A stretch of DNA of 64,000 nt from Malacoraja senta (lineage: Eukaryota): contig CM075988.1 of the NCBI GenBank assembly GCA_038087875.1, positions 2,542,001-2,606,000 on the forward strand. The letters run 5' to 3'. Below the pieces are notes generated by a model. That model was given only the letters and a program-made list of their open reading frames with translations, had not been told where the DNA came from and ran no database searches. Position 1 is the first letter of the stretch. Each line of letters starts with the position of its first letter. Positions 1,915 to 57,514 of the stretch are shown in pieces. A program made the translations under genes and the position numbers.

Positions 1915-3443
1915 CAGTGCCCTCCATATTGTTTGGGACAAAGACCGACCATTTATTTATTTGCCTCTGTACTGCACAATTTGAGATTTGTAATAGAAAA
2001 AAATCACATGAGGTTAAGGTACACATTGTCAGATTTTAATAAAGGCAATTTTTATACATTTTGGTTTCACCATGTACAAATTACAGCAGTGTTTATACAT
2101 AGTCCCCCCATTTCAGGGCACCATAATGTTTGGGACACAGCATTGTCATGTAAATGAGAGTAGTCATGTTTAGTATTTTGTTGCATATCCTTTGCATGCA
2201 ATGACTGCTTAAAGTCTGTGATTCATGGACATCACCAGTTGCTGGGTGTGTTCTCTGGTGATGCACTGCCAGGCCTGTATTGCAGTCATCTTTAGCTTCT
2301 GCTTATTTTAGGGGCTAGTCCCCTTCAGTTTTCTCTTCAGCATATAAAAGGCATGCACAATTGAGTTCAGATCAGGTGATGGACTTGGCCACTCAAGAAT
2401 TGACCATTTGTTTTAGCTTTGAAAAACGTATTTGTTGCTTTAGCAGTATGTTTGGATCATTGTCTTGCTGTAGAATGAACCAATGAGTTTTGAGGCATTT
2501 GTTTGAAGGAGCAGATAAGATGTGTCTATACACCTCAGAATTCATTATGCTACTACCATCAGCAGTTGTATCATCAATGAAGATAAGTGAGCCAGTACCT
2601 TCAATAGCCATACATGCCCAGGCCATAACACCCCCACCACCGTGTTTCACAGATGAGGTGGTATGCTTTGGATCTTGGGCAGTTCCTTCTATTCTCCATA
2701 TTTTGCTCTTGCCATCATTCCGATATAAGTTAATCTCCGTCTCGTCTGTCCACAAGACCTTTTTCCAGAACTGTGGTTGCTCTTTTAAGTACATCTTGAC
2801 AAACTGTAACCTGGCCATCCTATTTTTGAGGCTAACCGGTGGTTTGTATCTTGCAGTGTAGCCTCTGTATTTATTTTTATGAAGTCTCCGGTGGACAGTG
2901 GTCATTGACAAATCCACACCTGACTCCTGAAGAGTGTTTCTGATCTGTCGGACAGGTATTTGGGGATTTTTCTCTATTCAGAATTCTTCTGTCATCAGCT
3001 GTGGAGATCTTCCTTGGCCTGCCAGCCCCATTGTAATTAGTAAGCGCACCAGTGCTCTCTTTCTTTTTAATGATGTTCCAATGATGTTGATTTTGGTAAG
3101 CCTAAGGTTTGGCTGATATGTCTAGCAGTTTTATTCTTGTTTCTCAGTCTCATAATGGCTTCTTTGACTTTCATTGGCACAACTTTGGTCCTCATGTTGA
3201 TAAACAGCAATAAAAATTTCGAAAGGTGATGGAAAGACTGGAGGAAAGACTAGGTGCTGAGAGCTCTCTTATGAAATGGGGGGACTATGTATAAACACAG
3301 CTGTAATTTCTACATGGTGAAACCGAAATGTATAAAAAGGCCTTTATTAAAATCTGACAATGTGCACTTTAACCACATGTGATTTTTTTTCTATTACAAA
3401 TCTCAAGTTGTGGAGTACAGAGGCAAATAAATAAATGATGGGT
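1915..3443 (-). mobile_element. Tc1-family DNA transposon fossil, IR/DR type
   Basis: Left terminus TA|CAGTGCCC at 1915; ~170 bp inverted repeats at ~1945-2115 and ~3272-3443. Transposase remnants on the minus strand: KVLWTDET, SVKHGGGGVMAW, LQQDNDP, then frameshifted WPSPSPDLNSIV (catalytic E replaced by V). Confidence 0.92.
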
Positions 3444-28786: not shown

Positions 28787-31213
28787 TCAATATTCCTATA
28801 TATTATTACTTTGACAATTCATTTCCTTTGTGAAATATTAATGATTGATTGTGGAAAATGCTTTATTTATAGACAACAGACAATAGGTGCAGGAGTAGGC
28901 CATTCGGTCCTTCGAGCCAGCACCGCCATTCACTGTGATCATGGCTGATCATCCACAATCAGTGCCCCGTTCCTGCCTTCTCTCCATATCCCTTGACTCC
29001 GCTATCTTTAAGAGCTCTATCTTACTCTCTTTTAAAAGCATCCAGAGAATCGGCCTCCACTGCCTTCTGAGTCAGAGAATTCTGTTGATCTGCACCCAAT
29101 GGGACAGACTTAGCTTTCAGCGGAGATTTTCTTTTAAACTGAGCTTGTATCCTGAGGCTACAGTGTTCACCCAGCAGTTAAACCACCTCCTCTGTGTGTC
29201 TCTGCCACTACATTTTACAGTTAAACAGTCTTGATTTAAATACTTCCCGTTTCCATGATAGGTGCAGTGTCAGGTCAGCTGGCTGCTTGTGAAGCAACTG
29301 ATTAAAAAAAAGCAGATTTTCATTATTGCGGTGTTTCAACCAATTGGTTACAGGATTTTTAATAGCAATATCCTACATGTTTTAGTGCAAAGGAGTCTGG
29401 TTTAGCTTAATTGGGTTAAAATGATTGAGGTTACACAGGCTAGAAAAGGCTATTTAAGATCTGAGTATAATACCAGACGTTGACAGGGTTGTATTGTGCA
29501 GGTGGTTAACAATGATGAGTTGTGCTCATTGTTTGATGAACAAAGTCTCAGTTGATGCCACTGGTGTACTTCTGTAACTCAGAAACTCCAAAGTGTTCTT
29601 GCTCAACAAGAAAATGACCACTTTAAATTTTGCATTCATCTCCATGGCTTTTTGCCTTTGATTAGTACGGGTGTCAGGGGTTATGGGGATGAGGCAGGAT
29701 GATGGGGTTGAGAGGGAGATAGATCACCATGATTGAATGGTGGAGCAGACTTGATGGGTGGAATGGTCTAATTCTGCACGTATCACATGAACATCAACTT
29801 TGTGTGAACAGCCCTTCCATGCCTTTCCCCTGAATGGTCAGTGTCAGAATTAAGATTATATTCCTTTGTCCTGGACTCATCTAACCCTGGAAATAGAATC
29901 CTTAATTTTCTGAACTCAAGGAGATATAACTTATCCAGGAAATCTCTCTTCTTAATTAACCCAATTAGCTCTGGAATCTCCAAATCAAATCACCAATTAA
30001 CTTGGTGAATCTCCAGCGTCAGAATATGTGTTGCCTCGAACACAACGCTGTACTTCAACTAAAATAGAAAAGGTTGCAAACGTATATCTGTGGAAAGAGA
30101 AACATGGTTCATTTTACAGATCAAATACCTTTCATCGGTACTGTGGATGTCTGGCAAGAATTCAGCTTTTCATCATGTCATGTATGTTCTGGCCTCGTGG
30201 ATTTTTTAAATGATTTTTTATGATGAGCTCTTTGTCGTTGTACGCATTGGTTTATTATTGGGTTCAGTGGGGCTGAGAGTTCAGTAGGTTTGTGTGCAGC
30301 TACCTGCAGGGGAGACACCGAACCTTCCAAGGTCCCAGTCTCCCACATAACCCTGAGCTAGTAAAACATTCTGACAGTGGTTCATAACTTTTAAGTAGAG
30401 TAGTCAAGATTTACACACCAAGTCATTTCCAAGAGCAACATGTGAAAAGTTTGTTTTATTTTAACCATATGACCAGATGCTCTTGATTTTAGTTGTAGAT
30501 TTGTATAGCACAGAACTGGGATCTCCAGCCCTCCCTGTTCTTTTTTTACCCATCTACACATTATTTCATGGCTAAAGATACATATCCCAGAGTCGCTGCT
30601 CCCACTCGCTGGTTGACTCAAGGGTCTTTCACTGCCCCATGGTCACATCTTCCCTGCTCTGCTGTCCCTGTTCTTCACTGCCCCCATACTTATATCACTA
30701 TATCACTCCTGTGCTCAGTGCTACAGTATCCCATTGTGGGACAGCACAGAACAATGCCTACGGGACACTTGGATGGGCGAGGATCTGGATCTGGCTTCAA
30801 GTCAATAAATAGGACCAGGATCAGTTCATCGCTGGTCCCATACCTACTTGGTTTGGCCTCCGATGGCCCTGAAAGATCACCAAGGGTCCCAGGCCCAGCA
30901 GCAGGTGGGTGCTGGCGACTGGACAGACAGCAGGGAGAGTCACATTTGTGTTCAGCTCCTCCTAGTTACTGCATATTTTCCCCAACGTGGAGAGGGGTAG
31001 ATGGAACAGTCCTGAAGATTCACTGATGGGGTGATTGTCCGGTTGCATACCAAATGTGGACGTGTTTGCAGATACGGCAAGTGTTATGTCACAAAAAATA
31101 CCAGGGATTTAAGAAAAATACTATGGATTTAAAATTTACATTAGAACTCATTTCATTGATGCTTGTGTATTCATAAGTGTGTGGTAATTAATGTGCCGTT
31201 TGTTACTCCTCAG

Positions 31214-32320
31214 GAGAATCCAAGATGTACAGACCGAGGAGGCCTCGGTCCAGCAGCGATGCCTTGTCCGTTACCTTCAACGTTGGTGGCCTTTCCGGCC
31301 TAAACCACTGCAATTCCTACGACAACCTTCCCAGCAACGATAGTGAAGGAGAAGATGCCATGCTCCAAGTGCCTGCACTGGTGTCTCCTAGAATGGACGA
31401 AGTAGAACTGAGCCCACCAGATATGGGAGCGGCAGGGTTGGACTTTGACCCAATGTCCTTTCAGTGTAGTCCACCACGGGCACTACTGGAACTGGACAAC
31501 AACTCGCCTCGGGTGGATTCCCCGCACACTGGTAAAGGCAAGCTGAATGGCAGTTCGAGGGAGTCAGTCTTTGGCAGTGTGTGTTTGACACCTGGTAGTG
31601 CCACTAGTTCTGAACCAGCCTCTCACTCCCCAGATAAAGTACTCAGCCCATTCTTCTCGCCAGATCTGAGCCCCACTGATGAAAAACTGGCCAAACCACC
31701 TTCTTTTGCAGAAAAGGTGGTTCACGCCTTCTCCCCGAAAATAGGACGCAAGACCCCCAAGTTTCCCATGTTGACTATTTCTGATCCCATCGCCATCTCT
31801 GTTCCGATACGGGTTTCTGAAATGATTGGCAACATGGCTGCTGTCTCCCTAGCCTCGTCTCCGCCTTGCACCAGCCCAGCGGCCAACAGCAACGTCAACA
31901 AGTCGCCTCCGCAGATGATGTCCATGTTACTGAAGACCAGTGACATGCAACTGCCTGAGGTTTGTCGTCTGGAGATCCACAGCAAGCTCTCTGCTGCTGC
32001 AGCAGGCTCAGAGACTAAAGGGCAAAGTCCAGACTGGCACGATCAGACTTGCTACCCCAAGCCTGCGCCAGCTCCATACTTCCAAACAGGTACAAAATGG
32101 CAAAGTGCAGACCAGCACGAGCTGACCAGTCAGAACAAAACTAAACCACTTCCTCAGTCGCAAGCAGGGACTAAAGGACAAAGTTCCGATTGGCATGATT
32201 CCAGCAATCAACCCAAGACTGCACCATCGGTCCAGTCACAAATGGAGGCAAAAGCACCAAGCCCAGAATGGCATGAATTGACCAATCGGAACAAGACCAC
32301 ACCATCTACCCAGCCACATG
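31214..32320 (+). CDS. ARHGAP32: ARHGAP32 large coding exon (GESKMYRPRRPRSSSDAL...LDFDPMSFQCSPP...KVVHAFSPKIGRK...), ending in a 4 x 26-aa repeat
   Basis: Acceptor tactcctcag|GA, donor CATG|gtaagt; 1107 nt, phase 1-1; ORF track 31225..32331. Motifs RPRRPRSSSDALS, CNSYDNLP and DFDPMSFQCSPP are characteristic of ARHGAP32. Confidence 0.95.
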
Positions 32321-32351
32321 GTAAGTGTTGATTGAGAATATATATACTTTA

Positions 32352-32594
32352 TACCGCCAAAGACTCAGGTTCGATCCTGACTACGGGTGCTTGTCTGTAC
32401 GTTCTCCCCGTGACCTGCGTGGGATTCCACCTGGATCTCCGGTTTCCTACTACGCTCCAAAGTTTGAAAGCTAATTGGCTTGGTATAATTGTAAATTGCC
32501 CCTACAGTGTGTAGGATAGTGTTAGTGTGCAGTGATCGCTGGTCAGCATGGACTCGGTGGGTCAAAGGGCCTGATTCCGTGTTGCATCTCTAAA
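32352..32594 (+). mobile_element. tRNA-derived SINE (5'-clipped)
   Basis: B box GGTTCGATCC, central domain and tail present. Confidence 0.88.
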
Positions 32595-32639
32595 CCGTGC
32601 ATAGCTCTGGGATACAGGAGTCATGATACCAAGTCTTAC

Positions 32640-32760
32640 GGTAGACAAAAGTGCTGGAGAAACTCAGCGGGTGCAGCAGCATCTATGGAGCGAAGGAAAT
32701 AGGCAACGTTTTGGGCCGAAACCCTTCTTCGATTTTCCAGCATCTGCAGTTCCTTTTTAA
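32640..32760. mobile_element. Mini Penelope-pLTR/hammerhead insert with internal inversion and 14-bp TSD
   Basis: TSD ATACCAAGTCTTAC at 32626-32639 and 32761-32774; a minus-strand hammerhead unit is followed by a plus-strand tail segment. Confidence 0.88.
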
Positions 32761-32804
32761 ATACCAAGTCTTACATTGTGCATGTGGGCTGTATTTGGTC
32801 TTTT

Positions 32805-33114
32805 TAGTTTAGTTTAGAGATACAGCGTGAAACAGGCCCTTCGGCCCACCGAGTCTGCACTGAACAGCAATCCTCGCACATTAACACTACTCTCTACACA
32901 ATAGAGACAATTTCCTTTACATTGATACCAAACCAATTAACCTACAAACCTGGGAATCTTTGGAGTGGGCGAGGAAACTGAAGATCCCGGAGAAAATCCC
33001 CGCAGGTCACGGGGATACGTATAAACACCATACAGACAGCACCCGTAGTCAGGATCGAACCCGGGTCTTTGGCGCTGTGAGGCAGCAACTCCACTTCTGC
33101 GCCAATGTGCCACC
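32805..33114 (-). mobile_element. tRNA-derived SINE
   Basis: Full-length reverse-complement copy. Confidence 0.88.
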
Positions 33115-33289
33115 CTGTGAGTGTTGGGGGAACTCAATTTTTAGTCAGCACATGATTAGTATCTGTCACTCGTTGCTGCAGTCCTCACTGGAACTGATTT
33201 GTGCCATAATACTCTTCCAGAGTAATAGCAGCTTCAAGGTATTGTATCATGATTCTCCTGGAGAGTGAACATTGAGGAATTGTACGTTC

Positions 33290-34461
33290 TTTTGATAAGG
33301 TCCCACATACGAGAATAGTGGGCAAAATTGGGGCACGTGGCATTGGGGGTAGGGTGCTGACATGGATAGAAAATTGGTTGGCAGACAGGAAACAAAGGGT
33401 AGGGATTAATGGGTCCCTTTCAGAATGGCAGGCAGTAATTAGTGGGGTACCGCAAGGCTCGGTGCTGGGACCGCAGCTATTTACGATATACATTAATGAT
33501 TTGGATGAAGGCATTAAAAGTAACATTAGCAAATTTGCAAGTGACACAAAACTGGGTGGCAGTGTGAACTGAGGAGGATGCTCTGAGGATGCAGGGTGAC
33601 TTGGACAGGTTGGGTGAGTGGGCAGATGCATGGCAGATGCAGTTTAATGTGGATAAATGTGAGGTTATCCACTTTGATGGCAAAAACAGGAAGGCAGATT
33701 ATTATCTAAATGGTGTCAAGTTGGGAAAAGGGGAAGTACAACGGGATCTGGGCGTCCTTGTTCATCAGTCACTGAAAGTAAGCATGCAGGTACAGCAGGC
33801 AGTGAAGAAACCGAATGGAATGTTGGCCTTCATAACAAGAGAAGGAGTATAGGAGCAAAGAGGTCCTTCTGCAGTTGTACAGGGCCCTAGTGAGACCACA
33901 CCTGGAGTATTGTGTGCAGTTTTGGTCTCCAAATTGAGGAAGGACATTCTTGCTATTGAGGGAGTGCAGCGTAGGTTCATGAGGTTAATTCCCGGGATGG
34001 CGGGGCTGTCATATGTTGATAGATTGGAGCGGCTGGGCTTGTATACTCTTAGAAGAATGAGAGGGGATCTTATTGAAACATATAAGATTATTAAGGATTT
34101 GGACATGGTAGCTAGAGGCAGGAAACATGTTCCCGATGTTGGGGGAGTCCAAAACCAGGGGCCATAGTTTAAGAATAAGTGGTAAGCCATTTAGAATGGA
34201 GATGAGGAAAAACTTTTTCACACAGAGAGTTGTGAGTGTGTGGAATTCTCTGCCTCAGAGGGAGGTGGAGGCTGGTTCTCTGGATGCTTTCAAGAGAGAG
34301 TTAGATAGAGCTCTTAGGGATAGTGGAGTTAAGGGATATGGAAAGAAGGCAGGAACGGGGTACTGATTGTGGATGATCAGCCATGATCACATTGAATGGT
34401 GGTGCTGGCTCGAAGGGCCAAATGGCCTATTCCTGCACCTATTGTCTATTGTCTATTGTCT
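33290..34461 (+). mobile_element. CR1 LINE, 5'-truncated
   Basis: ORFs 33318..33572, 33589..33852, 33910..34167 and 34127..34366; (TATTGTC)n tail. Confidence 0.94.
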
Positions 34462-35188
34462 AATTGGGAGTGGGTACTGAGTGAGATCACAGTGTCACAT
34501 CAGCCCTGGGGAGAGATTGCTGACAGAGTGTTGCACTTAATGCTGAAGAGATCTATTGTGGCACCATGACATTCTCTCTCTCACGGCAGTGGGGAATGCA
34601 CTTTGTGCCATTCAAGTCCCAAAGGATGGAATTAGGATGGAAGATGGTGGTGCTGGTGGAATGTTGCACTCAGACCTGATGTGACGGGGTTGCTATGCTG
34701 ACTTGGTTTCAGTTAGTTTAGACTTGAGGATGTGATGTGATGTTGCATACTCTGCAGAGTGGGACCAGCACAGAGCTGCTCTGTCCCAGGAGAGCAGTAG
34801 TTATGCAGTGTTGCACTCTGATGTGGGAATGGAGGTGGGATTGGCATAGTGTCATTCTCTAGTCCAGCAGGCTTTGAGTTCCACACGGACTGCCTGCTTA
34901 TCTGTGTTACTCATTGTGTACGTGTGTGTGAGCCAAGTATTCCGACTTTCCATTGGCTGCACAAAGACTGTACATGAATTTGATCCTGATCTTCACCAGC
35001 TTTAGTACACATACACAAATAATTTCACTATACAGCTGTCACGGGCGGGAACATTGGCTGATTCCACCCTTACCACCAATTAATAGCCAAGTCCTGCTCT
35101 TTGTTGGTTAACCCAGCTCAAACCAATATTTATGCTATGATTATTTAATCAGACCACTTAACTCACATTTCAGTCCCAGAAAGAATAG

Positions 35189-35499
35189 TGGCATGGTGAC
35201 ACAGCGGTAAAGTTGCTGTCTTACAGCGAATGCAGCGCCGGAGACCCGGGTGCGATCCTGACTACGGGTGCTGTCTGTACGGAGTTTGTACTTTCTCCCT
35301 GTGACCTGCATGGTTTTCTCCGGGATCTTCAGTTTCCTCCCACACTAAAAAGATGTGCAAGTTTGTTGGTTAATTGGCTTGGTAAATGTAAAATTTGTCC
35401 GTAGAGGGTGTAGGATAGTGTTAATATGCGGAGATCACTGGTCGGCGCTGACCCAGTGGGCCGAAAGTTCTGTTTCCACGCTGTATATCTAAACTAAAC
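35189..35499 (+). mobile_element. tRNA-derived SINE
   Basis: Head, central domain and tail as in the other copies. Confidence 0.88.
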
Positions 35500-36087
35500 A
35501 GTGCAAAAAATCATAGCATCCTTTCATCTGTTGGAGAGGCATATTTTACTGAAAGTGCCAAATTTTCAAGAAGTTGTTTGCTGACAACCCAAAAATTAGT
35601 TCAGTAGTAGACAGTGAAGGTGGTTGTAACGGAATATAGAAGGAAATATACCATATGGAATGTTATGTGGATCAGTGGCAGATGGAAATTAATTCACAGA
35701 AGTGTAAGGTAATGGATTTTAGGATGTGAAATTCTAATGGGACATTTACGTAAATGTCAGGTACCTCAGAAGCGTTGATGTGCTGAGGAACCTTGGGGTG
35801 CAGGTTTGTAGTTTCCTGAAAGTAGTAGAACAGGTGGATAGAATAGTGAAGAAAGCATCCAGCAATGTGCCGCGTTAGGCCGAGGCATAGTGAAAGAATC
35901 AGATGTTGTGTTGCAGCTGTGCAAAACAGTAGTCAGGCTACACTTGGGGTATTGTGTACAGTTTTGGTCACCACACTACATGGTAGCATTGGAATAGATT
36001 CACCAGAACACTTACTGGGGGGGCTTTACTTATCAGGAGAGATTGGATAAGCTGGGATTTTGCTTGCGGATTGAAAAGTGACCTTAT

Positions 36088-37210
36088 TAGACAATAGACA
36101 ATAGGTGCAGGAGTAGGCCATTTGGCCTTTCGAGCCAGCACTGCCATTCACTGTTATCATGGCTGATCAGCCACAATCAGTACCCAGTCCTGCCTTATCC
36201 CCATATCCCTTGACTCTGCTATCTTTAAGAACTCTATCTAACTCTCTCTTGAAAGCATCCAGAGAAACAGCCTCCACTGTTTTCTGAGGCAGAGAATTCC
36301 ACAGATTCACAACTTTTTCCTCATCTCCGTTCTAAATGGCCTACCCTTTATTCTTAAACTTTGGCCCCTGGTTCTGGACTCTGCCAACATTGGGAACATG
36401 TTTCCTGCCTCAAGCGTGTCCAATCCCTTACTAGTTTTATATGTTTCAATAAGATATCCTCTCATCCTTCTAAATTCCAGAGTATACAAGCCCAGTTAAT
36501 CCATTCTTTAAACATATCACTTTGAGCGACTTTGAGTCCTGAAAAGCGCTATATAAATAAATCTATTATTATTATATGACAGTCCCGCCATCCCGGGAAT
36601 TAACCTCGTGAACCTACGCTGCACTCCCTCATTAGCAAGAATGTCCTTCCTCAAATTTGGAGACCAAAACTGCACACAATACTCCAGGTGTGATCTCACC
36701 TCTTTGCTCCTGTACTCAACTCCTCTTGTTATGAAGGCCAACATGCCATTAACTTTCTTCACTGCCTGCTGTACCTGTATGCTTACTTTCAGTGACGGAT
36801 GTACAAAGACACCCAGATCTCGTTGTAGTTCCCCTTTTCCTAACTTGACACCATTCAGATAATGATCTTGCCACCAAATCTATCCACATTAAACTGCATC
36901 TGCCCACTCACCCAACCTGTCCAAGTCACCCTGCATCCTCATAGCATCCTCCTCACAGTTCACACTGCATCTGCAAATTTGCTAATGTTACTTTTAATCC
37001 CTTCATTTAAAACATTAAAGTATATTGTAAATAGCTACGGTCCCAGCACTGAGCCTTGCGGTACCCCACTAGTCATTGCGGTCCCAGCACTGAGCCTTGC
37101 GGTACCCCACTAGTCACTGCCTGCCATTCTGAAAGGGACCCGTTAATCCCTACTCTTTGTTTCCTGTTGGCCAACCATTTTTTTATCCGTCAGTACCCTA
37201 CCCCTAGTAC
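36088..37210 (-). mobile_element. CR1 LINE fragment with a small L2-type tail insert (~36518-36573) and a 38-bp tandem duplication (~37038-37116)
   Basis: ORFs 36307..36489 and 36517..36762. Confidence 0.9.
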
Positions 37211-37431
37211 CATAATGGGTTAAAAAAAATTAAGAGGGGCATAGATAGGATAGATAGATTATTGTTTACGCAGGGCAAGGGAGTCTAGAACTGGAGGGCA
37301 CAGGTTTAAGGTGAGATGGGAGAAATTTAAAGAGATCTGAGGTGAAGATTTTTAACCTGGAGAATGGTAGTTATATGGAATGAGTTGGTCGAGGAAGATA
37401 AAATTACACTGTTTGAAATGTGGTTGGACAA

Positions 37432-37855
37432 CGTAAAGTAAAGTAAAGTAAATTTATTTATATAGCACTTTTCAATCAATTTCAATCAAAGAAGCCAAAG
37501 TGCTTTACAGAGAAAATTATCCATATAAATAATAAAAAGAGGTAGAAAAAAAATGACACAACACACTATAAGAGATTCAACACGAACATCCCCCCACAGC
37601 AGAATCTACACTCTACACTGTGAGGGAAGGCACTAAAATGTCCAGTCCTCCTCCTCCTCCTAGTCCACCCGAGGTCGGGGCCAGTTTGAGGCCACCGCAG
37701 CCAGTCGCCGCAACGGCAGCCCGATGATTATAGGCCCACCCGCCGGGAAGCTGGAACACCGGCATCGGGTGGAAAAGTCCTCAGCGGCCTTGAAGTGTCT
37801 GGAGCAGCCGCTCCTGCCCCGAAGACTGCGACGCCCGTGGACTTCAGGCCGCGCC
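37432..37855 (-). mobile_element. Non-autonomous retroelement with GC-rich body and L2-type 3' tail
   Basis: Minus strand ends AAAAGTGCTATATAAATAAAT(TTACT)n; flanked by an imperfect GGTTG(G)ACAA duplication within an old CR1. Confidence 0.55.
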
Positions 37856-37904
37856 GGTTGACAAGTGCTTACGGGGGAAAGGAGCAGAGAAATACAGGCC
37901 AAAT

Positions 37905-38219
37905 GGGGCAGCCTAGTGGCACAGCGGAAAAGTTGCTGCCTTACAGCGCCAGAGACCCGGACCCGATCCTGACACTGGGTGCTGTCTGTGCAGAGTTTGT
38001 ACGTTCTCCCCGTGACCTGCATGAGTTTTCTCCAGGTGCTCCGGTTTCCTCCCACACTTCAAAGATGCACAGGTTTGTCAGGTAATTGGCCTCAATACAA
38101 TTGTAAATTGTCCCTAGTGTGTGGGATAGTGCTAGAGTACAGGGGTGTTCGCTGGTCGGCAGGGACTTAGTGGGCTGAAGGGCCTGTTTCCGTGCTGCAT
38201 CTCTAAAGTCTAGTCTAAA
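37905..38219 (+). mobile_element. tRNA-derived SINE
   Basis: Full-length family copy. Confidence 0.88.
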
Positions 38220-38961
38220 TGTGGCCGTAGATTGGCCAATTGGTCACCATGGAGGAGTTTGGCTGAGTGGGCACATTTCTGTGCTGTACAACTCCATCAC
38301 GCCGAGGAGAGATTTGTTATTCAGGTGGGTTTAAACGGGTGTGGTATGGATAAAGGACCCATTGCGATAGTGTGGCAGGGTTGAAAGTTGAAGCAAACAC
38401 AGAAGTCAAAGTGAGAAAGTCCAACAGGTCGGAGAGATGAGGATGGGGAGCGAGAAAGTTCTGATCGGTAAACTGTATTCATTTTAATTCGAGGTCTAAT
38501 GTCCCTGCAACCTTTGATACCCTTACTAATCAAGAACCTATCAATAGCCACTTTAAAAGAACTCAAAGACGTCCTCAGATTCATCACCGGGAAATAAATT
38601 CCTCATCTCCATTCTAGAGGTACAGCTGTACAAGATTACACCATGCTTGCACTATCGTGTGCTTTCAGCTAGTTGTACTGCAGGAAGGATGTCGTTAAGC
38701 TAAGGAGGGTCAGAATGAATTTACATGGGTGTTGTGACATTGGTTAACCTGGAACTGTATTCACTGGAGAGCAGGAGATGAAACCGTGACCTGATAAAGG
38801 TATATGAAATCATGAGTATAAATAGGGTAGATAGCCACAGTCTTTTTCTCAGTCTTGGTGTGGAACAAGCTACCAGAGAAAGTCGTCGAGGCGGCTACAA
38901 TTGCAAAGTTTAAAAGACATGTCCCATATCAGTCAATATTTGGAAAGATAAAATCCCCCAC

Positions 38962-39322
38962 TTAAGGGGTTGGACAGGCTAGATGCAGGAAGATTGCTCC
39001 CGATGTTGGGGAAGTCCAGGACAAGGGGTCACAGCTTAAGGATAAGGGGGAAATCCTTTAAAACCGAGATGAGAAGAACTTTTTTCACACAGAGAGTGGT
39101 GAATCTCTGGAACTCTCTGCCACAGAGGGTAGTCGAGGCCAGTTCATTGGCTATATTTAAGAGGGAGTTAGATGTGGCCCTTGTGGCTAAAGGGATCAGA
39201 GGGTATGGAGAGAAGGCAGGTACGGGATACTGAGTTGGATGATCAGCCATGATCATATTGAATGGCGGTGCAGGCTCGAAGGGCCGAATGGCCTACTCCT
39301 GCACCTAATTTCTATGTTTCTA
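38962..39322 (+). mobile_element. CR1 young-subfamily 3' fragment
   Basis: ORF 38970..39233 is nearly identical to the C-terminus of the intact ORF2 at 54405..57473. Confidence 0.95.
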
Positions 39323-39339
39323 TTACAATCCTATAATTC

Positions 39340-40580
39340 TTGCAGCTGTCTGAGGTCTCCCTATATATTTCCTCCTATATATTCCCTATATAATTCCTGC
39401 TGACTACGGGTGAACCTAGAGTATTATCCCATCAATGTGATCACCCATTCTTATTTCTTCTTGTCCCTCCTCCCATATTGTCCACTGGCTGATCCCCGAT
39501 GAACATCCTCCAAGTATCACCATGATGTTCTCCCTAAAGAATAACGCAACTCCCCCTTCTCATTTACCTCCACCACTATCCCTCTAGTACCTGTACCCCA
39601 CATCATTGAGCTGCCAGCCCCAGTCCCTCTCTCAGCCACATTTCAATTTAGTTTATTGTCAGGTGTACCGAGGTATAATGAAAAGCTTTTGTTGCGTAAT
39701 AACCAGCTTCTTTCATAGCTATGTGATATCCCAGTTCCACATCTCTATCTGAACCATGAGTCCATCTGCCTTACCCTGTCAGGCCTCTTGCAGTTTCATC
39801 TATCATTCTGCTCTCACTCCTTTGCATGCTCCAGTCTGTTCCATCTATTAACCACTCTCTTTTACATGTATTTGTCCCAAAATTCTCTGCTCTCTACTGT
39901 TTTGTACCTCACGCCCCTGCCAGACTCATTTAACCCTCTGGAGCAACTATAGTAAATCTCCCTGTCAGGATATTGGGTCCCCTCCAGTTCTGGTGCAACC
40001 CGTCTCTCTTATACTCGTCACCAGAAGGGATTCCAGTGGTCTAAAAATCTGAATCCCAGCCCCCTGCACCAGCTTCTCAGCCACACATTTGTCTGCCCTA
40101 CCTCCTATTCCCACTTTCACTGGTACGTAGAACTTGAAGTAATCCAGAGATTAATACCTTTTTTAACCCGGGTTTAATTTTTATCAGTGTTTTAATCTCC
40201 TCCTTAACTCTGTATATTCACTCTGCAGCATCTCCTCCCTTTTTCTCCTCATGTCATTGATACCTATATGTACAACGACCTCTGGCTGTTCACCCTCCCC
40301 CTTGAGAATTTTCTGCAACCCTTCAGAGACTTCCTTGAATGACCTGCTCCCTCTAACTCTCTTGGTGATCATCCTGCTGCCTGCACCTTAACTGTTGCCA
40401 TCTCTCTGGAACGCCTGTCTTTTTTGCCTCATCCTGAGCAAGTTCCACCACTTAATGCGGTCAGCCAGAAGCTGCCGCTGGATTCGCTCCCCACAAGTGT
40501 AGTCACCAGGCTCACTGGAAGCTTCCCTGATCTCCCACATCTTGCAGGAGGATCAGATGACCGCCTTGACTGCCATCCTG
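39340..40580 (-). mobile_element. Old CR1 5' region: ORF1 esterase remnant and start of ORF2
   Basis: ORF 40184..40372 reads ILKGEGEQPEVVVHIGIND, the SGNH/esterase GxND block typical of CR1 ORF1. Confidence 0.75.
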
Positions 40581-40778
40581 GCCACGAATGGACTGGGTGG
40601 GCCAAAGAGCCCGTTTCCATGCTGTATCTCTAACTAAATGTGAAGGAGATCACAGATCTTGTGGCGGATCATCGATCGTGAAAATGGGTAAAGGGGAAAG
40701 TTGAAGAAGACACAAGGAACTGCAGATAGACACAAAAAGCAGGAGTAACTCCAGCATCTCTGGACAGAAGGAATGGGT

Positions 40779-40806
40779 GACGTTTCGGGTCGAGACCTTT
40801 CTTCAG
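40779..40806 (-). ncRNA. Minimal hammerhead core in pLTR fragment
   Basis: Minus strand reads CTGAAGA-AAGGTCTCGACCC-GAAA-CGTC. Confidence 0.55.
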
Positions 40807-41215
40807 TTCCTACTGTTCAAGGAACTGTAGATGCTGGTTTACAAGTGCTGGAGTAACTGAGCGGGTCAGGCAGCATTTCGGGCCAGGACCATAAACATTA
40901 CTTATCCATGTTCTCTAGAGATGCTACCTGACCCAATGAGTTATTCCAACATTTTGTGTCTTAAGTTGAAGCGGACCTTCTATTATACTAAGTGTTCACT
41001 TCTACGTTTCTTCGCTGAAGGCCGTCAGGACAGAGCCTCAGCACTTTCTTCTCAGACACAGCACTTGGAAGTCAGACACAGCCACTCCCAAAATGCCACT
41101 CCACTGGAGCCTTTAAAATCCTCACAACGGCGCATACTCGTAATGCCACGTGGGACCATACTCAAAGGTATCGGCCTCTTTGTAAATGAATGAAATGCTT
41201 CTGTTTTCTCCGCAG

Positions 41216-41547
41216 CGACTCCTCCAGTGGAATCCTCGCAGAAAGCTCCAGCGGTTAGCTCTGTGCCTCTGATTCCACCACCTCCACCCCCAAAGAGTGC
41301 CGCCCGCCTGCTGGCACTGGCTCTGGCAGAGAGTGCCCAACAGGCCACCGCGCTCTCTCAGAAGAAGCCTCACGCCGGGACTCAGCATCTTTTCACTGCA
41401 CCGTCGACAGAGCAGTGCCCAGCAACTACAGGCCCTGCACAACCCACGGTCAGCTATCCAACAACAGTGCAGCCAATTGTCGATCCGCAGCCAGCCACAT
41501 ACCAGGCCCCGTCCAGCACTGCGCCAGGGCTCACAGCTTCAGGACAG
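41216..41547 (+). CDS. ARHGAP32: ARHGAP32 penultimate coding exon (ATPPVESSQKAPAVSSVPLIPPPPPPKSAARLLALALAESAQQA...)
   Basis: Acceptor tgttttctccgcag|CG, donor GGACAG|gtaagc; 332 nt, phase 1-0. Contains LIPPPPPPK..AR.LALALAESAQQA. Confidence 0.92.
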
Positions 41548-54313: not shown

Positions 54314-57300
54314 CATAGATACATAGAAAATAGGTGCAGGAGTAGGCCATTCGGCCCTTCGAGCCTGCACCGCCATTCAATATGATCATGGCTGATCATC
54401 CAACTCAGTATCCCGTACCTGCCTTCTCTCCATACCCCCTGATCCCTTTAGCCACAAGGGCCACATCTAACTCCCTCTTAAATATAGCCAATGAACTGGC
54501 CTCAACTACCCTCTGTGGCAGAGAGTTCCAGAGATTCACCACTCTCTGTGTGAAAAGGTTTTTCCTCATCTCGGTCTTAAAGGATTTCCCCCTTATCCTT
54601 AAGCTGTGACCCCTTGTCCTGGACTTCCCCAACATCGGGAACAATCTTCCTGCATCTAGCCTGTCCAACCCCATAAGAATTTTGTACATTTCTATAAGAT
54701 CACCTCTCAATCTCCTAAATTCTAGCGAGTATAAGCCAAGTCTATCCAGTCTTTCTTCATATGAAAGTCCTGACATCCCAGGAATCAGTCTGGTGAACCT
54801 TCTCTGCACTCCCTCTATGGCTATAATGTCCTTCCTCAGATTTGGAGACCAAAACTGTACGCAATACTCCAGGTGTGGTCTCACCAAGACGCTGTACAAC
54901 TGCAGTAGAACCTCCCTGCTCCTATACTCAAATCCTCTTGCTATGAAGGCCAACATACCATTCGCTTTCTTCACTGCCTGCTGCACCTGCATGCCTACTT
55001 TCAATGACTGGTGTACCATGACACCCAGGTCTCGCTGCATCTCCCCATTTCCTAATCGGCCACCATTTAGATAATAGTCTGCCTTCCCGTTTTTGCCACC
55101 AAAGTGGATAACCTCACATTTATCCACATTATACTGCATCTGCCAAACATTTGCCCACTCACCCAGCCTATCCAAGTCACCTTGCAGTCTCCTAGCATCC
55201 TCCTCACAGCTAACACTGCCCCCCAGCTTAGTGTCATCCGCAAACTTGGAGATGTTGCTTTCAATTCCCTCGTCCAGATCATTAATATAAATTGTAAATA
55301 GCTGGGGTCCCAGCACTGAGCCTTGCGGTACCCCACTAGTCACTGCCTGCCATTGTGAAAATGACCCGTTTACTCCTACTCTTTGCTTCCTGTTTGCCAG
55401 CCAGTTCTCTATCCACATCAATACTGAACCCCCAATACCGTGTGATTTAAGTTTGTATCCTAATCTCTTATGTGGTACCTTGTCGAAAGCCTTCTGAAAG
55501 TCCAGATACAACACATCCACTGGTTCTCCCCTATCCACTCTACTAGTTACATCCTCGAAAAATTCTATAAGATTCGTCAGACACGATTTACCTTTCGTAA
55601 ATCCATGCTGACTTTGTCCAATGATTTCACCACTTTCCAAATGTGCTGCTATCCCATCTTTAATAACTGACTCTAGCAGTTTCCCCACTACCGATGTTAG
55701 ACTAACTGGTCTGTAATTCCCCGTTTTCTCTCTCCCTCCCTTCTTAAAAAGTGGGGTTACGTTTGCTACCCTCCAATCCTCAGGAACTACTCCAGAATCT
55801 AAAGAGTTTTGAAAAATTATCACTAATGCATCCACTATTTCTGGAGCTACTTCCTTAAGTACTCTGGGATGCAGCCTATCTGGCCCTGGTGATTTATCGG
55901 CCTTTAATCCATTTAATTTACCCAACACCACTTCCCGACTAACCTGGATTTCACTCAGTTCCTCCATCTCCTTTGACCCGCGGCCCCCTGCTATTTCCGG
56001 CAGATTATTTATGTCTTCCTTAGTGAAGACGGAACCAAAGTAGTTATTCAATTGGTCCACCATATCCTTGTTCCCCATGATCAATTCACCTGTTTCTGAC
56101 TGCAAGGGACCTACATTTGTTTTAACTAATCTCTTTCTCTTCACATATCTATAAAAACTTTTGCAGTCAGTTTTTATGTTCCCTGCCAGTTTCCTTTCAT
56201 AATCTATTTTCCCTTTCCTAATTAAGCCCTTTGTCCTCCTCTGCTGGTCTCTGAATTTCTCCCAGTCCTCTGGTATGCTGCTTTTTCTGGCTAATTTGTA
56301 CGCATCATCTTTTGCTTTGATACTATCCCTGATTTCCCTTGTTATCCACGGATGCACTACCTTCCCTGATTTATTCTTTTGCCAAACTGGGATGAACAAT
56401 TTTTGTAGTTCATCCATGCAGTCTTTAAATGCCTTCCATTGCATATCCACCTTCAACCCTTTTAGAACTAATTGCCAGTCAATCTTGGCCAATTCACGTC
56501 TCATACCCTCAAAGTTACCTTTCTTTAAGTTCAGAACCGTTGTTTCTGAATTAACAATGTCACTCTCCATCCTAATGAAGAACTCAACCATATTATGGTC
56601 ACTCTTGCCCAAGGGGGCACGCACAACAAGTCTGCTAACTAACCCTTCCTCATTACTCAATACCCAGTCTAGAATAGCCTGCTCTCTCGTTGGTTCCTCT
56701 ACATGTTGGTTTAGATAACTATCCCTCATACATTCCAAGAAATCCTCTTCCTCAGCACCCCTGCCAATTTGATTCACCCAATCTATATGTAGATTGAAGT
56801 CACCCATTATAACTGTTTTGCCTTTGTTGCACGCATTTCTAATTTCCTGTTTGATGCCATCCCCAACTTCACTACTACTGCTAGGTGGCCTGTACACAAC
56901 ACCCACCAGCGTTTTCTGCCCCTTAGTGTTTCGCAGCTCTACCCATACCGATTCCACATCCTCCAAGCTAATGTCCTTCCTTTCCACTGCGTTAATCTCC
57001 TCTCTAACCAGCAACGCTACCCCACCTCCTTTTCCTTTCTCTCTATCCCTCCTGAAAATTGAACATCCCTGGATGTTCAGCTCCCAGCCTTGGTCACCCT
57101 GGAGCCATGTCTCCGTGATCCCAACTATATCATAATCATTAATTGCTATCTGCACGTTCAACTCATCCACCTTATTACGAATGCTCCTTGCATTGAGACA
57201 CAAAGCCTTCAGGCTTGTTTTTACAACGCTCTTACCCCTTATACAATTATGTTGAAAAGTGGCTCTTTTTGATTTTTGCCGTGGATTTGTCTGCCTGCCA

Positions 57301-57514
57301 CTTTTACTTTTCACCTTGCTACCTATTGCTTCCGCCTGCATTTTACACCCCTCTGTTTCTCTGCTCACCCATTTAAGAACCCCACCACCTCTTATTCTCT
57401 GTTTATTATTGTTTTCTTCTTTCCCCCCTACATGTTGGGTCTGAGTGCTTTCCTTCTCTGCCTCCTGCCTCACACACTGTCTAATAGCATTCTCTATTTG
57501 AGTCCCTCAACCCC
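54314..57514 (-). mobile_element. Young CR1 LINE with intact ORF2, ORF1 missing
   Basis: Tail at ~54314-54330, 3'UTR, uninterrupted ORF2; the 5' end abuts the rest of a split hammerhead unit. Confidence 0.96.
54405..57341 (-). CDS. CR1 ORF2: APE endonuclease + reverse transcriptase (978 aa from first ATG)
   Basis: EN motifs LNARS, GITETW, VYRPP, MGDFN, LDWVL, SDH; RT motifs [30 protein letters not shown]. No stops or frameshifts in ORF-track frame 54405..57473. Confidence 0.93.
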   Translation of the reverse strand: MQAEAIGSKVKSKSGRQTNPRQKSKRATFQHNCIRGKSVVKTSLKALCLNARSIRNKVDELNVQIAINDYDIVGITETWLQGDQGWELNIQGCSIFRRDREKGKGGGVALLVREEINAVERKDISLEDVESVWVELRNTKGQKTLVGVVYRPPSSSSEVGDGIKQEIRNACNKGKTVIMGDFNLHIDWVNQIGRGAEEEDFLECMRDSYLNQHVEEPTREQAILDWVLSNEEGLVSRLVVRAPLGKSDHNMVEFFIRMESDIVNSETTVLNLKKGNFEGMRRELAKIDWQLVLKGLKVDMQWKAFKDCMDELQKLFIPVWQKNKSGKVVHPWITREIRDSIKAKDDAYKLARKSSIPEDWEKFRDQQRRTKGLIRKGKIDYERKLAGNIKTDCKSFYRYVKRKRLVKTNVGPLQSETGELIMGNKDMVDQLNNYFGSVFTKEDINNLPEIAGGRGSKEMEELSEIQVSREVVLGKLNGLKADKSPGPDRLHPRVLKEVAPEIVDALVIIFQNSLDSGVVPEDWRVANVTPLFKKGGREKTGNYRPVSLTSVVGKLLESVIKDGIAAHLESGEIIGQSQHGFTKGKSCLTNLIEFFEDVTSRVDRGEPVDVLYLDFQKAFDKVPHKRLGYKLKSHGIGGSVLMWIENWLANRKQRVGVNGSFSQWQAVTSGVPQGSVLGPQLFTIYINDLDEGIESNISKFADDTKLGGSVSCEEDARRLQGDLDRLGEWANVWQMQYNVDKCEVIHFGGKNGKADYYLNGGRLGNGEMQRDLGVMVHQSLKVGMQVQQAVKKANGMLAFIARGFEYRSREVLLQLYSVLVRPHLEYCVQFWSPNLRKDIIAIEGVQRRFTRLIPGMSGLSYEERLDRLGLYSLEFRRLRGDLIEMYKILMGLDRLDAGRLFPMLGKSRTRGHSLRIRGKSFKTEMRKNLFTQRVVNLWNSLPQRVVEASSLAIFKRELDVALVAKGIRGYGEKAGTGY

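Follow-up and report, generated by a model that had tools for sequence, protein, structure and literature searches.

The window analysed here is a stretch of 64,000 nucleotides from the skate Malacoraja senta, and it carries part of ARHGAP32, the N-terminal exons of which fall beyond it. This gene assignment, proposed in a preliminary description of the same DNA, is borne out by the Amblyraja radiata protein P0002, the closest relative. Nine segments of the window match residues 442-1943 of P0002 at 79-100%, the best matches are named ARHGAP32, and a Pfam search of P0002 recovers SH3 and RhoGAP domains together with a sub-threshold PX domain, in keeping with the PX-SH3-RhoGAP architecture of ARHGAP32 orthologues. 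The same three domains are found in bony-vertebrate ARHGAP32 (PX-RICS, p250GAP), which in addition shares the 14-3-3 motif named in PMC4799364, located in the last exon, as well as the end of the exon described below and the anchors flanking it.

Within this gene, a large internal coding exon of 1107 nt (phase 1-1), bordered by AG at 31212-13 and GT at 32321-22 and 95% identical to residues 696-1063 of P0002, ends in four in-register units of 78 nt, or 26 amino acids, without insertions or deletions. The array stops at 32319, one base before the exon end at 32320. The unit starts (32008, 32086, 32164 and 32242), the unit length, the translations, the register and the end point all agree with the preliminary description. 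The features are as follows.

31214..32320 (+): large internal coding exon of ARHGAP32, disordered C-terminal region (match to P0002, splice sites, spliced contigs covering it end to end)
31214..31510 (+): part matching the final portion of the GABARAP-binding region of mammals (residues 562-796; PMC4799364), mapped via anchors in mammalian orthologues, with an approximate boundary
32008..32085 (+): unit 1, outer type, orthologue of the first shark unit; core W kept, L lost
32086..32163 (+): unit 2, inner type, orthologue of the second shark unit; Q in place of the core W throughout the batoids, derived W at position 5 of the unit
32090..32091 (+): weak GT sharing the phase of the true donor (from the sequence); no isoform using it among 79 spanning records
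32164..32241 (+): unit 3, inner type, nearest to inner shark units; W kept, L lost
32242..32319 (+): unit 4, outer type, orthologue of the unit that closes shark arrays
32266..32283 (+): E-W-H-E-L-T core of unit 4, candidate linear motif; the sole intact W-x-x-L in the window array, invariant in ten of ten batoids
32321..32326 (+): splice donor in use in spliced contigs (contigs, sequence)
41216..41547 (+): next exon, with a polyproline stretch and a conserved helix, spliced straight onto the repeat (match to P0002, orthologues, contigs)

At a lag of 78 nt, 148 of 234 positions match, compared with 66 +/- 7 (maximum 94) in 20,000 codon shuffles. Self-similarity is limited to approximately 31995-32320 and is at background level elsewhere, and no second copy of the array was found in the rest of the 64-kb window. 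Between units, 49 (1-2), 50 (1-3), 42 (1-4), 48 (2-3), 49 (2-4) and 51 (3-4) of the 78 nucleotides are identical. As identity between the units is only 54-65%, it is expected that Tandem Repeats Finder does not report the array. A 9-nt deletion in unit 3 of Amblyraja and Leucoraja is absent from the window skate.

On the reverse strand, the window also holds an open frame of 1033 residues (54405-57506), which we take to be a CR1-like LINE with endonuclease and reverse transcriptase and of which many broken copies lie across the window, and a fragment of a transposase frame (2393-2977), presumably Tc1/mariner-like.

Inclusion of the array in transcripts

Contigs were compared from four of 22 sequencing runs, which derive from related skates and are only guessed to be RNA; 16 runs bear such guessed RNA labels, and intronic repeats dominate the depth. 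One contig of 9018 nt (X13 record 9) spans 31213-32319 at its positions 2333-3442 and continues at 3443 with 41215, and a contig of 8980 nt from a separate study (X5 record 15) shows the identical junction, 32319 to 41215, on the opposite strand. An X1 contig spans 31940-32320 unbroken, while X6 yields short pieces only. In addition, each of the 79 chondrichthyan protein records reaching across the region carries the complete array of its species; eight more records in the same clusters stop short of spanning it. These spliced contigs bear out the coding status of the repeat and its reading through to the donor at 32320. The preliminary description had named exclusion of the repeat by an upstream donor as the result that would count against it, and both contigs and protein records carry the array instead.

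That the repeat is intronic, or skipped through an upstream donor, could be argued from the weak in-phase GT at 32090 and from the provenance of the runs. With two long contigs from two studies crossing the array and 79 of 79 spanning records holding all of it, this reading is barely conceivable, and for the main isoform it is already contradicted. The junction of units 1 and 2 (32087-32095) resembles a weak splice donor, the use of which would remove units 2-4 in frame.

A chondrichthyan array and its single-copy counterpart

The distribution of the array was traced in 23 cartilaginous species including the window skate, with 126 units, a set assembled in part from the best 120 of 508 and of 293 matches. 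The array is present in all 23 species. The chimaera Callorhinchus has three units, the ten batoids have four, five carpet sharks have six, and Pristiophorus, Heterodontus, two lamniforms and two catsharks have seven. The largest number, 11, is found in Heptranchias (P0122 residues 963-1248), in which four inner copies are identical. The seven units are colinear in six galeomorph and squalomorph sharks, and 111 of the 126 units have a length of exactly 26 residues. Among the batoids, unit 1 of Hypanus is shortened to 15 residues, so that the profile detects three units, and deletions run through unit 1 in stingrays and mantas. Bamboo and epaulette sharks (P0126, P0286, P0294) carry eight additional residues after the last unit.

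Against 308 proteins, the unit profile finds several units in 80 records, every one of them chondrichthyan, and single weak matches (3.6-6.0 bits) in 11 others. Bony-vertebrate ARHGAP32 differs in having one diverged segment without W at this site, compared with 3-11 units in cartilaginous fishes. In 169 non-chondrichthyan proteins, which are relatives rather than independent trials and do not include named teleosts or cyclostomes, the highest-scoring of 22 windows taken at the homologous site came first among all windows in 44, within the top three in 92 and within the top ten in 135. In the examples shown, this proto-unit reaches at most 18, as against at least 39 for true units, and W is present in the proto-unit of one of the 169 proteins. 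The spacing between the flanking anchors differs accordingly, from approximately 146-151 residues in bony vertebrates to 214-223 in batoids and 302 in catsharks, the anchors varying by a few residues between measures. A salamander ARHGAP33 also contains one segment matching the head of the unit, which ranks first among its windows and suggests that the ancestral state was a single copy.

Some bird models and unnamed frames (P0057, P0082, P0194, P0195) run past the donor into the intron. This artefact of annotation shows where the shared exon ends: the bony-vertebrate read-through models leave the frame right after the proto-unit, indicating a donor at the same place. Frog ARHGAP32 (e.g., P0040, P0045, P0117) has in this part of the exon an independent insertion of approximately 40 residues that is not built of the unit, and its anchor spacing is 182-196, as against 146-151.

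The repeat had been proposed to be lineage-specific and absent from mammals. As an array it is indeed absent from mammals and other bony vertebrates, which have the proto-unit instead, but it is not specific to skates, being common to all cartilaginous fishes sampled. Judged by this distribution, the amplification dates to the chondrichthyan stem. That stem is more than about 400 million years old.

Broader searches returned little. With the exon as query against 1.84 billion representatives, none of the 48 matches aligned best within the repeat alone. When a shark array was compared with shorter proteins, no score was obtained for any of 7999 candidates, a weak search in which candidates were crowded. 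The best score in the ESM Atlas, 0.85, was to unrelated bacterial clusters, and Pfam places no family on the repeat or the exon (E 0.1). The chondrichthyan sequences stand in RefSeq models without a repeat family, and no description of the repeat was found among the papers listed on ARHGAP32, on sharks and skates or on LIR and GABARAP, a search that covered few subscription journals. The array is a real and apparently undescribed coding repeat found throughout the chondrichthyans.

Lineage-specific coding tandem repeats in disordered regions, or coding minisatellites, are a known class. The ARHGAP32 array resembles them in that its unit is in frame, its terminal units stay fixed, its interior varies and is at times homogenised, and it has no fold. 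It differs in being old and diverged, and in that a single-copy proto-unit can be traced both in the sister lineage and in the paralogue.

Order of duplication

The preliminary description read the four skate units as an ABAB pattern, produced by a 78-bp duplication followed by a 156-bp duplication, and neither part of this reading is borne out. Alternate units are no closer than neighbours, with 14 of 26 amino acids identical between units 2 and 3, the same as between 1 and 3 and more than between 2 and 4 (11). A tree was built for 74 units drawn from 13 of the 23 species, based on 26 columns and with many forks open. In it the first units of elasmobranchs, 12 of 12, fall together (98/94), while second and inner units lie across a 99/93 branch from the first, last and chimaera units. 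The nearest shark counterparts of skate units 1, 2 and 4 are unit 1, unit 2 and the last unit, respectively, while skate unit 3 is nearest to inner units. Compared in this way, the skate array is best described as outer-inner-inner-outer, with units 1 and 4 set against units 2 and 3.

A recent origin of the ABAB arrangement within skates could account for the four non-consensus residues common to units 1 and 3, and a short conversion tract may have arisen in Rajidae. However, identity between units 1 and 3 in Pristis, Narcine and Rhinoraja (11, 8 and 9) is below that between units 2 and 3 (12, 12 and 14), suggesting that the residues shared by units 1 and 3 are late changes. A single non-consensus residue is common to units 2 and 4, and unit 3 has it as well; the rest of the likeness between units 2 and 4 is ancestral. 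Synonymous differences, from only approximately 16 sites per pair, are larger for 1-3 and 2-4 (0.61) than for 1-2 (0.44) and 3-4 (0.43). Together with the presence of the array in chimaera and sharks and the 99/93 split, these observations make a skate-specific origin very improbable, and positional orthology with shark units, as read from the alignments, already contradicts it.

The history that we favour begins with the last 26 codons of the exon, single in bony vertebrates and in ARHGAP33, which underwent tandem amplification in the ancestor of cartilaginous fishes. By the time of the ancestor of sharks and rays the first, second and last units already differed, and the interior copy number afterwards shifted to give 3 to 11 units, probably by unequal crossing-over or slippage; we infer unequal exchange as the cause of the copy changes. 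This course of events (amplification in the stem, fixed terminal units and interior copy change) is well supported. The four identical inner units of Heptranchias show a recent interior expansion. Inner units may have been lost in batoids or gained in sharks, and the position of Hexanchiformes is disputed (10.64898/2026.02.13.705779). The expansion in Heptranchias may be length-polymorphic or hard to assemble.

Constraint and possible function

An AlphaFold2 model from a 17-row alignment predicts neither helix nor strand in the repeat (pLDDT approximately 44-62, pTM 0.18), bearing out the disordered context proposed earlier. With no Pfam repeat family at E 0.1 and no repeating secondary structure, the array does not resemble a folded solenoid. 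In all six pairs of window units pN is lower than pS, with dN/dS of 0.12-0.72 in pairs that are near saturation and not independent. Counted on a species tree, the repeat has 0.79-1.05 changes per column in batoids, approximately twice the 0.43 of the upstream exon, and 0.35-1.0 in seven-unit sharks, compared with 0.31 upstream. These rates are approximately equal to, or somewhat above, that of the loosest part of the next exon.

Under a codon-mutability model, columns 9-16 of the unit seem slow (66 changes against approximately 90). When residue rates are drawn from the remainder of the tail, columns 9-14 give P 0.05 overall and 0.29 in sharks, and L13 is not constrained; the constraint that the codon model had placed on K4, K18 and D9 is likewise mostly gone. 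W10 is kept in 80 of 83 shark units, with two changes where about 6-7 would be expected (P 0.03-0.06, without correction for the 26 columns). In batoid unit 4, the six core columns have no changes and the remaining columns 21, compared with 13 and 62 in units 1-3 (Fisher P 0.031; P 0.056 for W-H-E-L alone). Batoid unit 2, which lacks the W, has just one core change.

Intact W-x-x-[LIV] cores are present in 77 of the 126 units (65 of 83 in sharks and 11 of 40 in batoids), and at least one occurs in each of the 23 species. Heptranchias keeps 10 of 11, and nine of ten batoids have one of four. In the window skate unit 4 alone matches the LIR/AIM core [WFY]-x-x-[LIV], so that the multivalent binding site envisaged in the preliminary description does not hold for this species, while sharks retain most of their cores. 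In all 22 elasmobranchs the last unit has the form [DE]-W-[HR]-E-[LM], and in the chimaera it lacks the L.

The LIR comparison draws on a host protein already known to bind GABARAP. In PX-RICS this binding occurs through residues 562-796 (PMC4799364, PMC7226772), a region that in mammals ends in the first third of the same exon, approximately 165 residues upstream of the repeat. LIR binding is aided by an acidic residue at -1 and by upstream residues that can be phosphorylated (PMC7615515). Unit 4 shares with canonical LIR motifs its W-x-x-L core, an acidic residue (E/D) at -1, a Ser at -3 and a setting predicted to be disordered. It differs in its His at +1, its few acidic residues and its distance from the mapped region. 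His at +1, found in 61 of the 77 intact cores, lies outside the six-residue xLIR pattern given in PMC5640201, which fits two of 126 units and none in the window. In 70 of the 77 intact cores a single acidic residue occupies the six upstream positions, and Pro stands at +1 in four shark units. According to the same source, W-x-x-L type patterns are very common, occurring in 15,460 of 16,609 viral proteins. Given the GABARAP-binding host, an LIR-like candidate site in unit 4 is plausible from its residues.

In the reading that we place first, to which we give about an even chance, the array would serve as a disordered linker, joining the GABARAP-binding region to the block of polyproline and helix, with one functional motif in its last unit. 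Inner copies would be redundant and decaying, and the last copy would retain D/E-W-H-E-L as a short linear motif, probably docking W and L into a partner. Proteins of the Atg8/GABARAP family are the likeliest partner class and take roughly half of the weight that we assign to a motif; the contact would be an auxiliary site of low affinity, present once in skates and rays and several times in sharks. We infer a binding role for the last core from its invariance in batoid unit 4, from the presence of W-x-x-[LIV] in every species and from the binding of GABARAP by PX-RICS. The motif is weakened by the twofold rate of the repeat, by a core that is not clearly slow with residue-specific rates, by the almost equally static core of batoid unit 2, by the poor xLIR fit and commonness of W-x-x-L patterns, by the chimaera last unit and by the binding of GABARAP in bony vertebrates that have no array.

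Copy numbers from 3 to 11 in the fastest part of the exon would be expected of a spacer, amplified in a disordered segment tolerant of indels and kept for frame, composition and disorder, with no binding residue. W or L is gone in 29 of 40 batoid units, residue type largely explains column conservation, and the deletions through unit 1 in stingrays and mantas and the unrelated insertion in frogs fall in the same stretch. Against such a spacer stand the invariant last-unit core of batoids and the retention of W10 in sharks, both at P 0.03-0.06, as well as the exact unit length, and we regard it as a serious possibility that probably does not hold. A docking array in which each unit binds, and avidity rises with copy number, would fit the many intact cores of sharks, Heptranchias included, and the seven colinear units of six species. 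However, one core of four is intact in the window skate and most batoids, Pro follows W in some shark units, and the high retention in Heptranchias follows from recent copying, making such an array quite improbable. We consider it unlikely, if a little less so, that an Atg8/GABARAP-binding array arose de novo, through the gain of W in the terminal exon segment and its amplification to up to ten LIR-like copies beside the ancestral GABARAP-binding region. In sharks, copy number would then tune avidity for GABARAP-coated membranes in the trafficking of GABA-A receptors and cadherins, and skates and rays would have returned to a single site.

In the window skate the array is a real but modest evolutionary curiosity. 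Its wider value lies in a datable coding repeat born from an exon end, with a visible single-copy precursor and copy numbers (3, 4, 6, 7 and 11) that are diagnostic of clades. If the W-H-E-L core binds GABARAP, a linear motif would have arisen and multiplied in an autism-linked trafficking scaffold, and the series of arrays would be a natural valency series. Otherwise, it is a lineage-specific feature of a disordered region in a brain trafficking protein.

Other motif classes were considered for the core and rejected. The kinesin light-chain W-acidic motif is a W directly followed by D or E; in the array H follows W in most units, and D does so in one of 126. For the AP2/GAE appendage, delta-COP di-tryptophan and MDM2 F-x3-W-x2-L motifs, as we take them to be defined, required residues are missing or present in one unit only.

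A further tryptophan, the derived W at position 5 of unit 2 (32098-32100), is kept in 21 of 22 elasmobranchs, even in batoids without the core W, and the same position varies freely in the other units.
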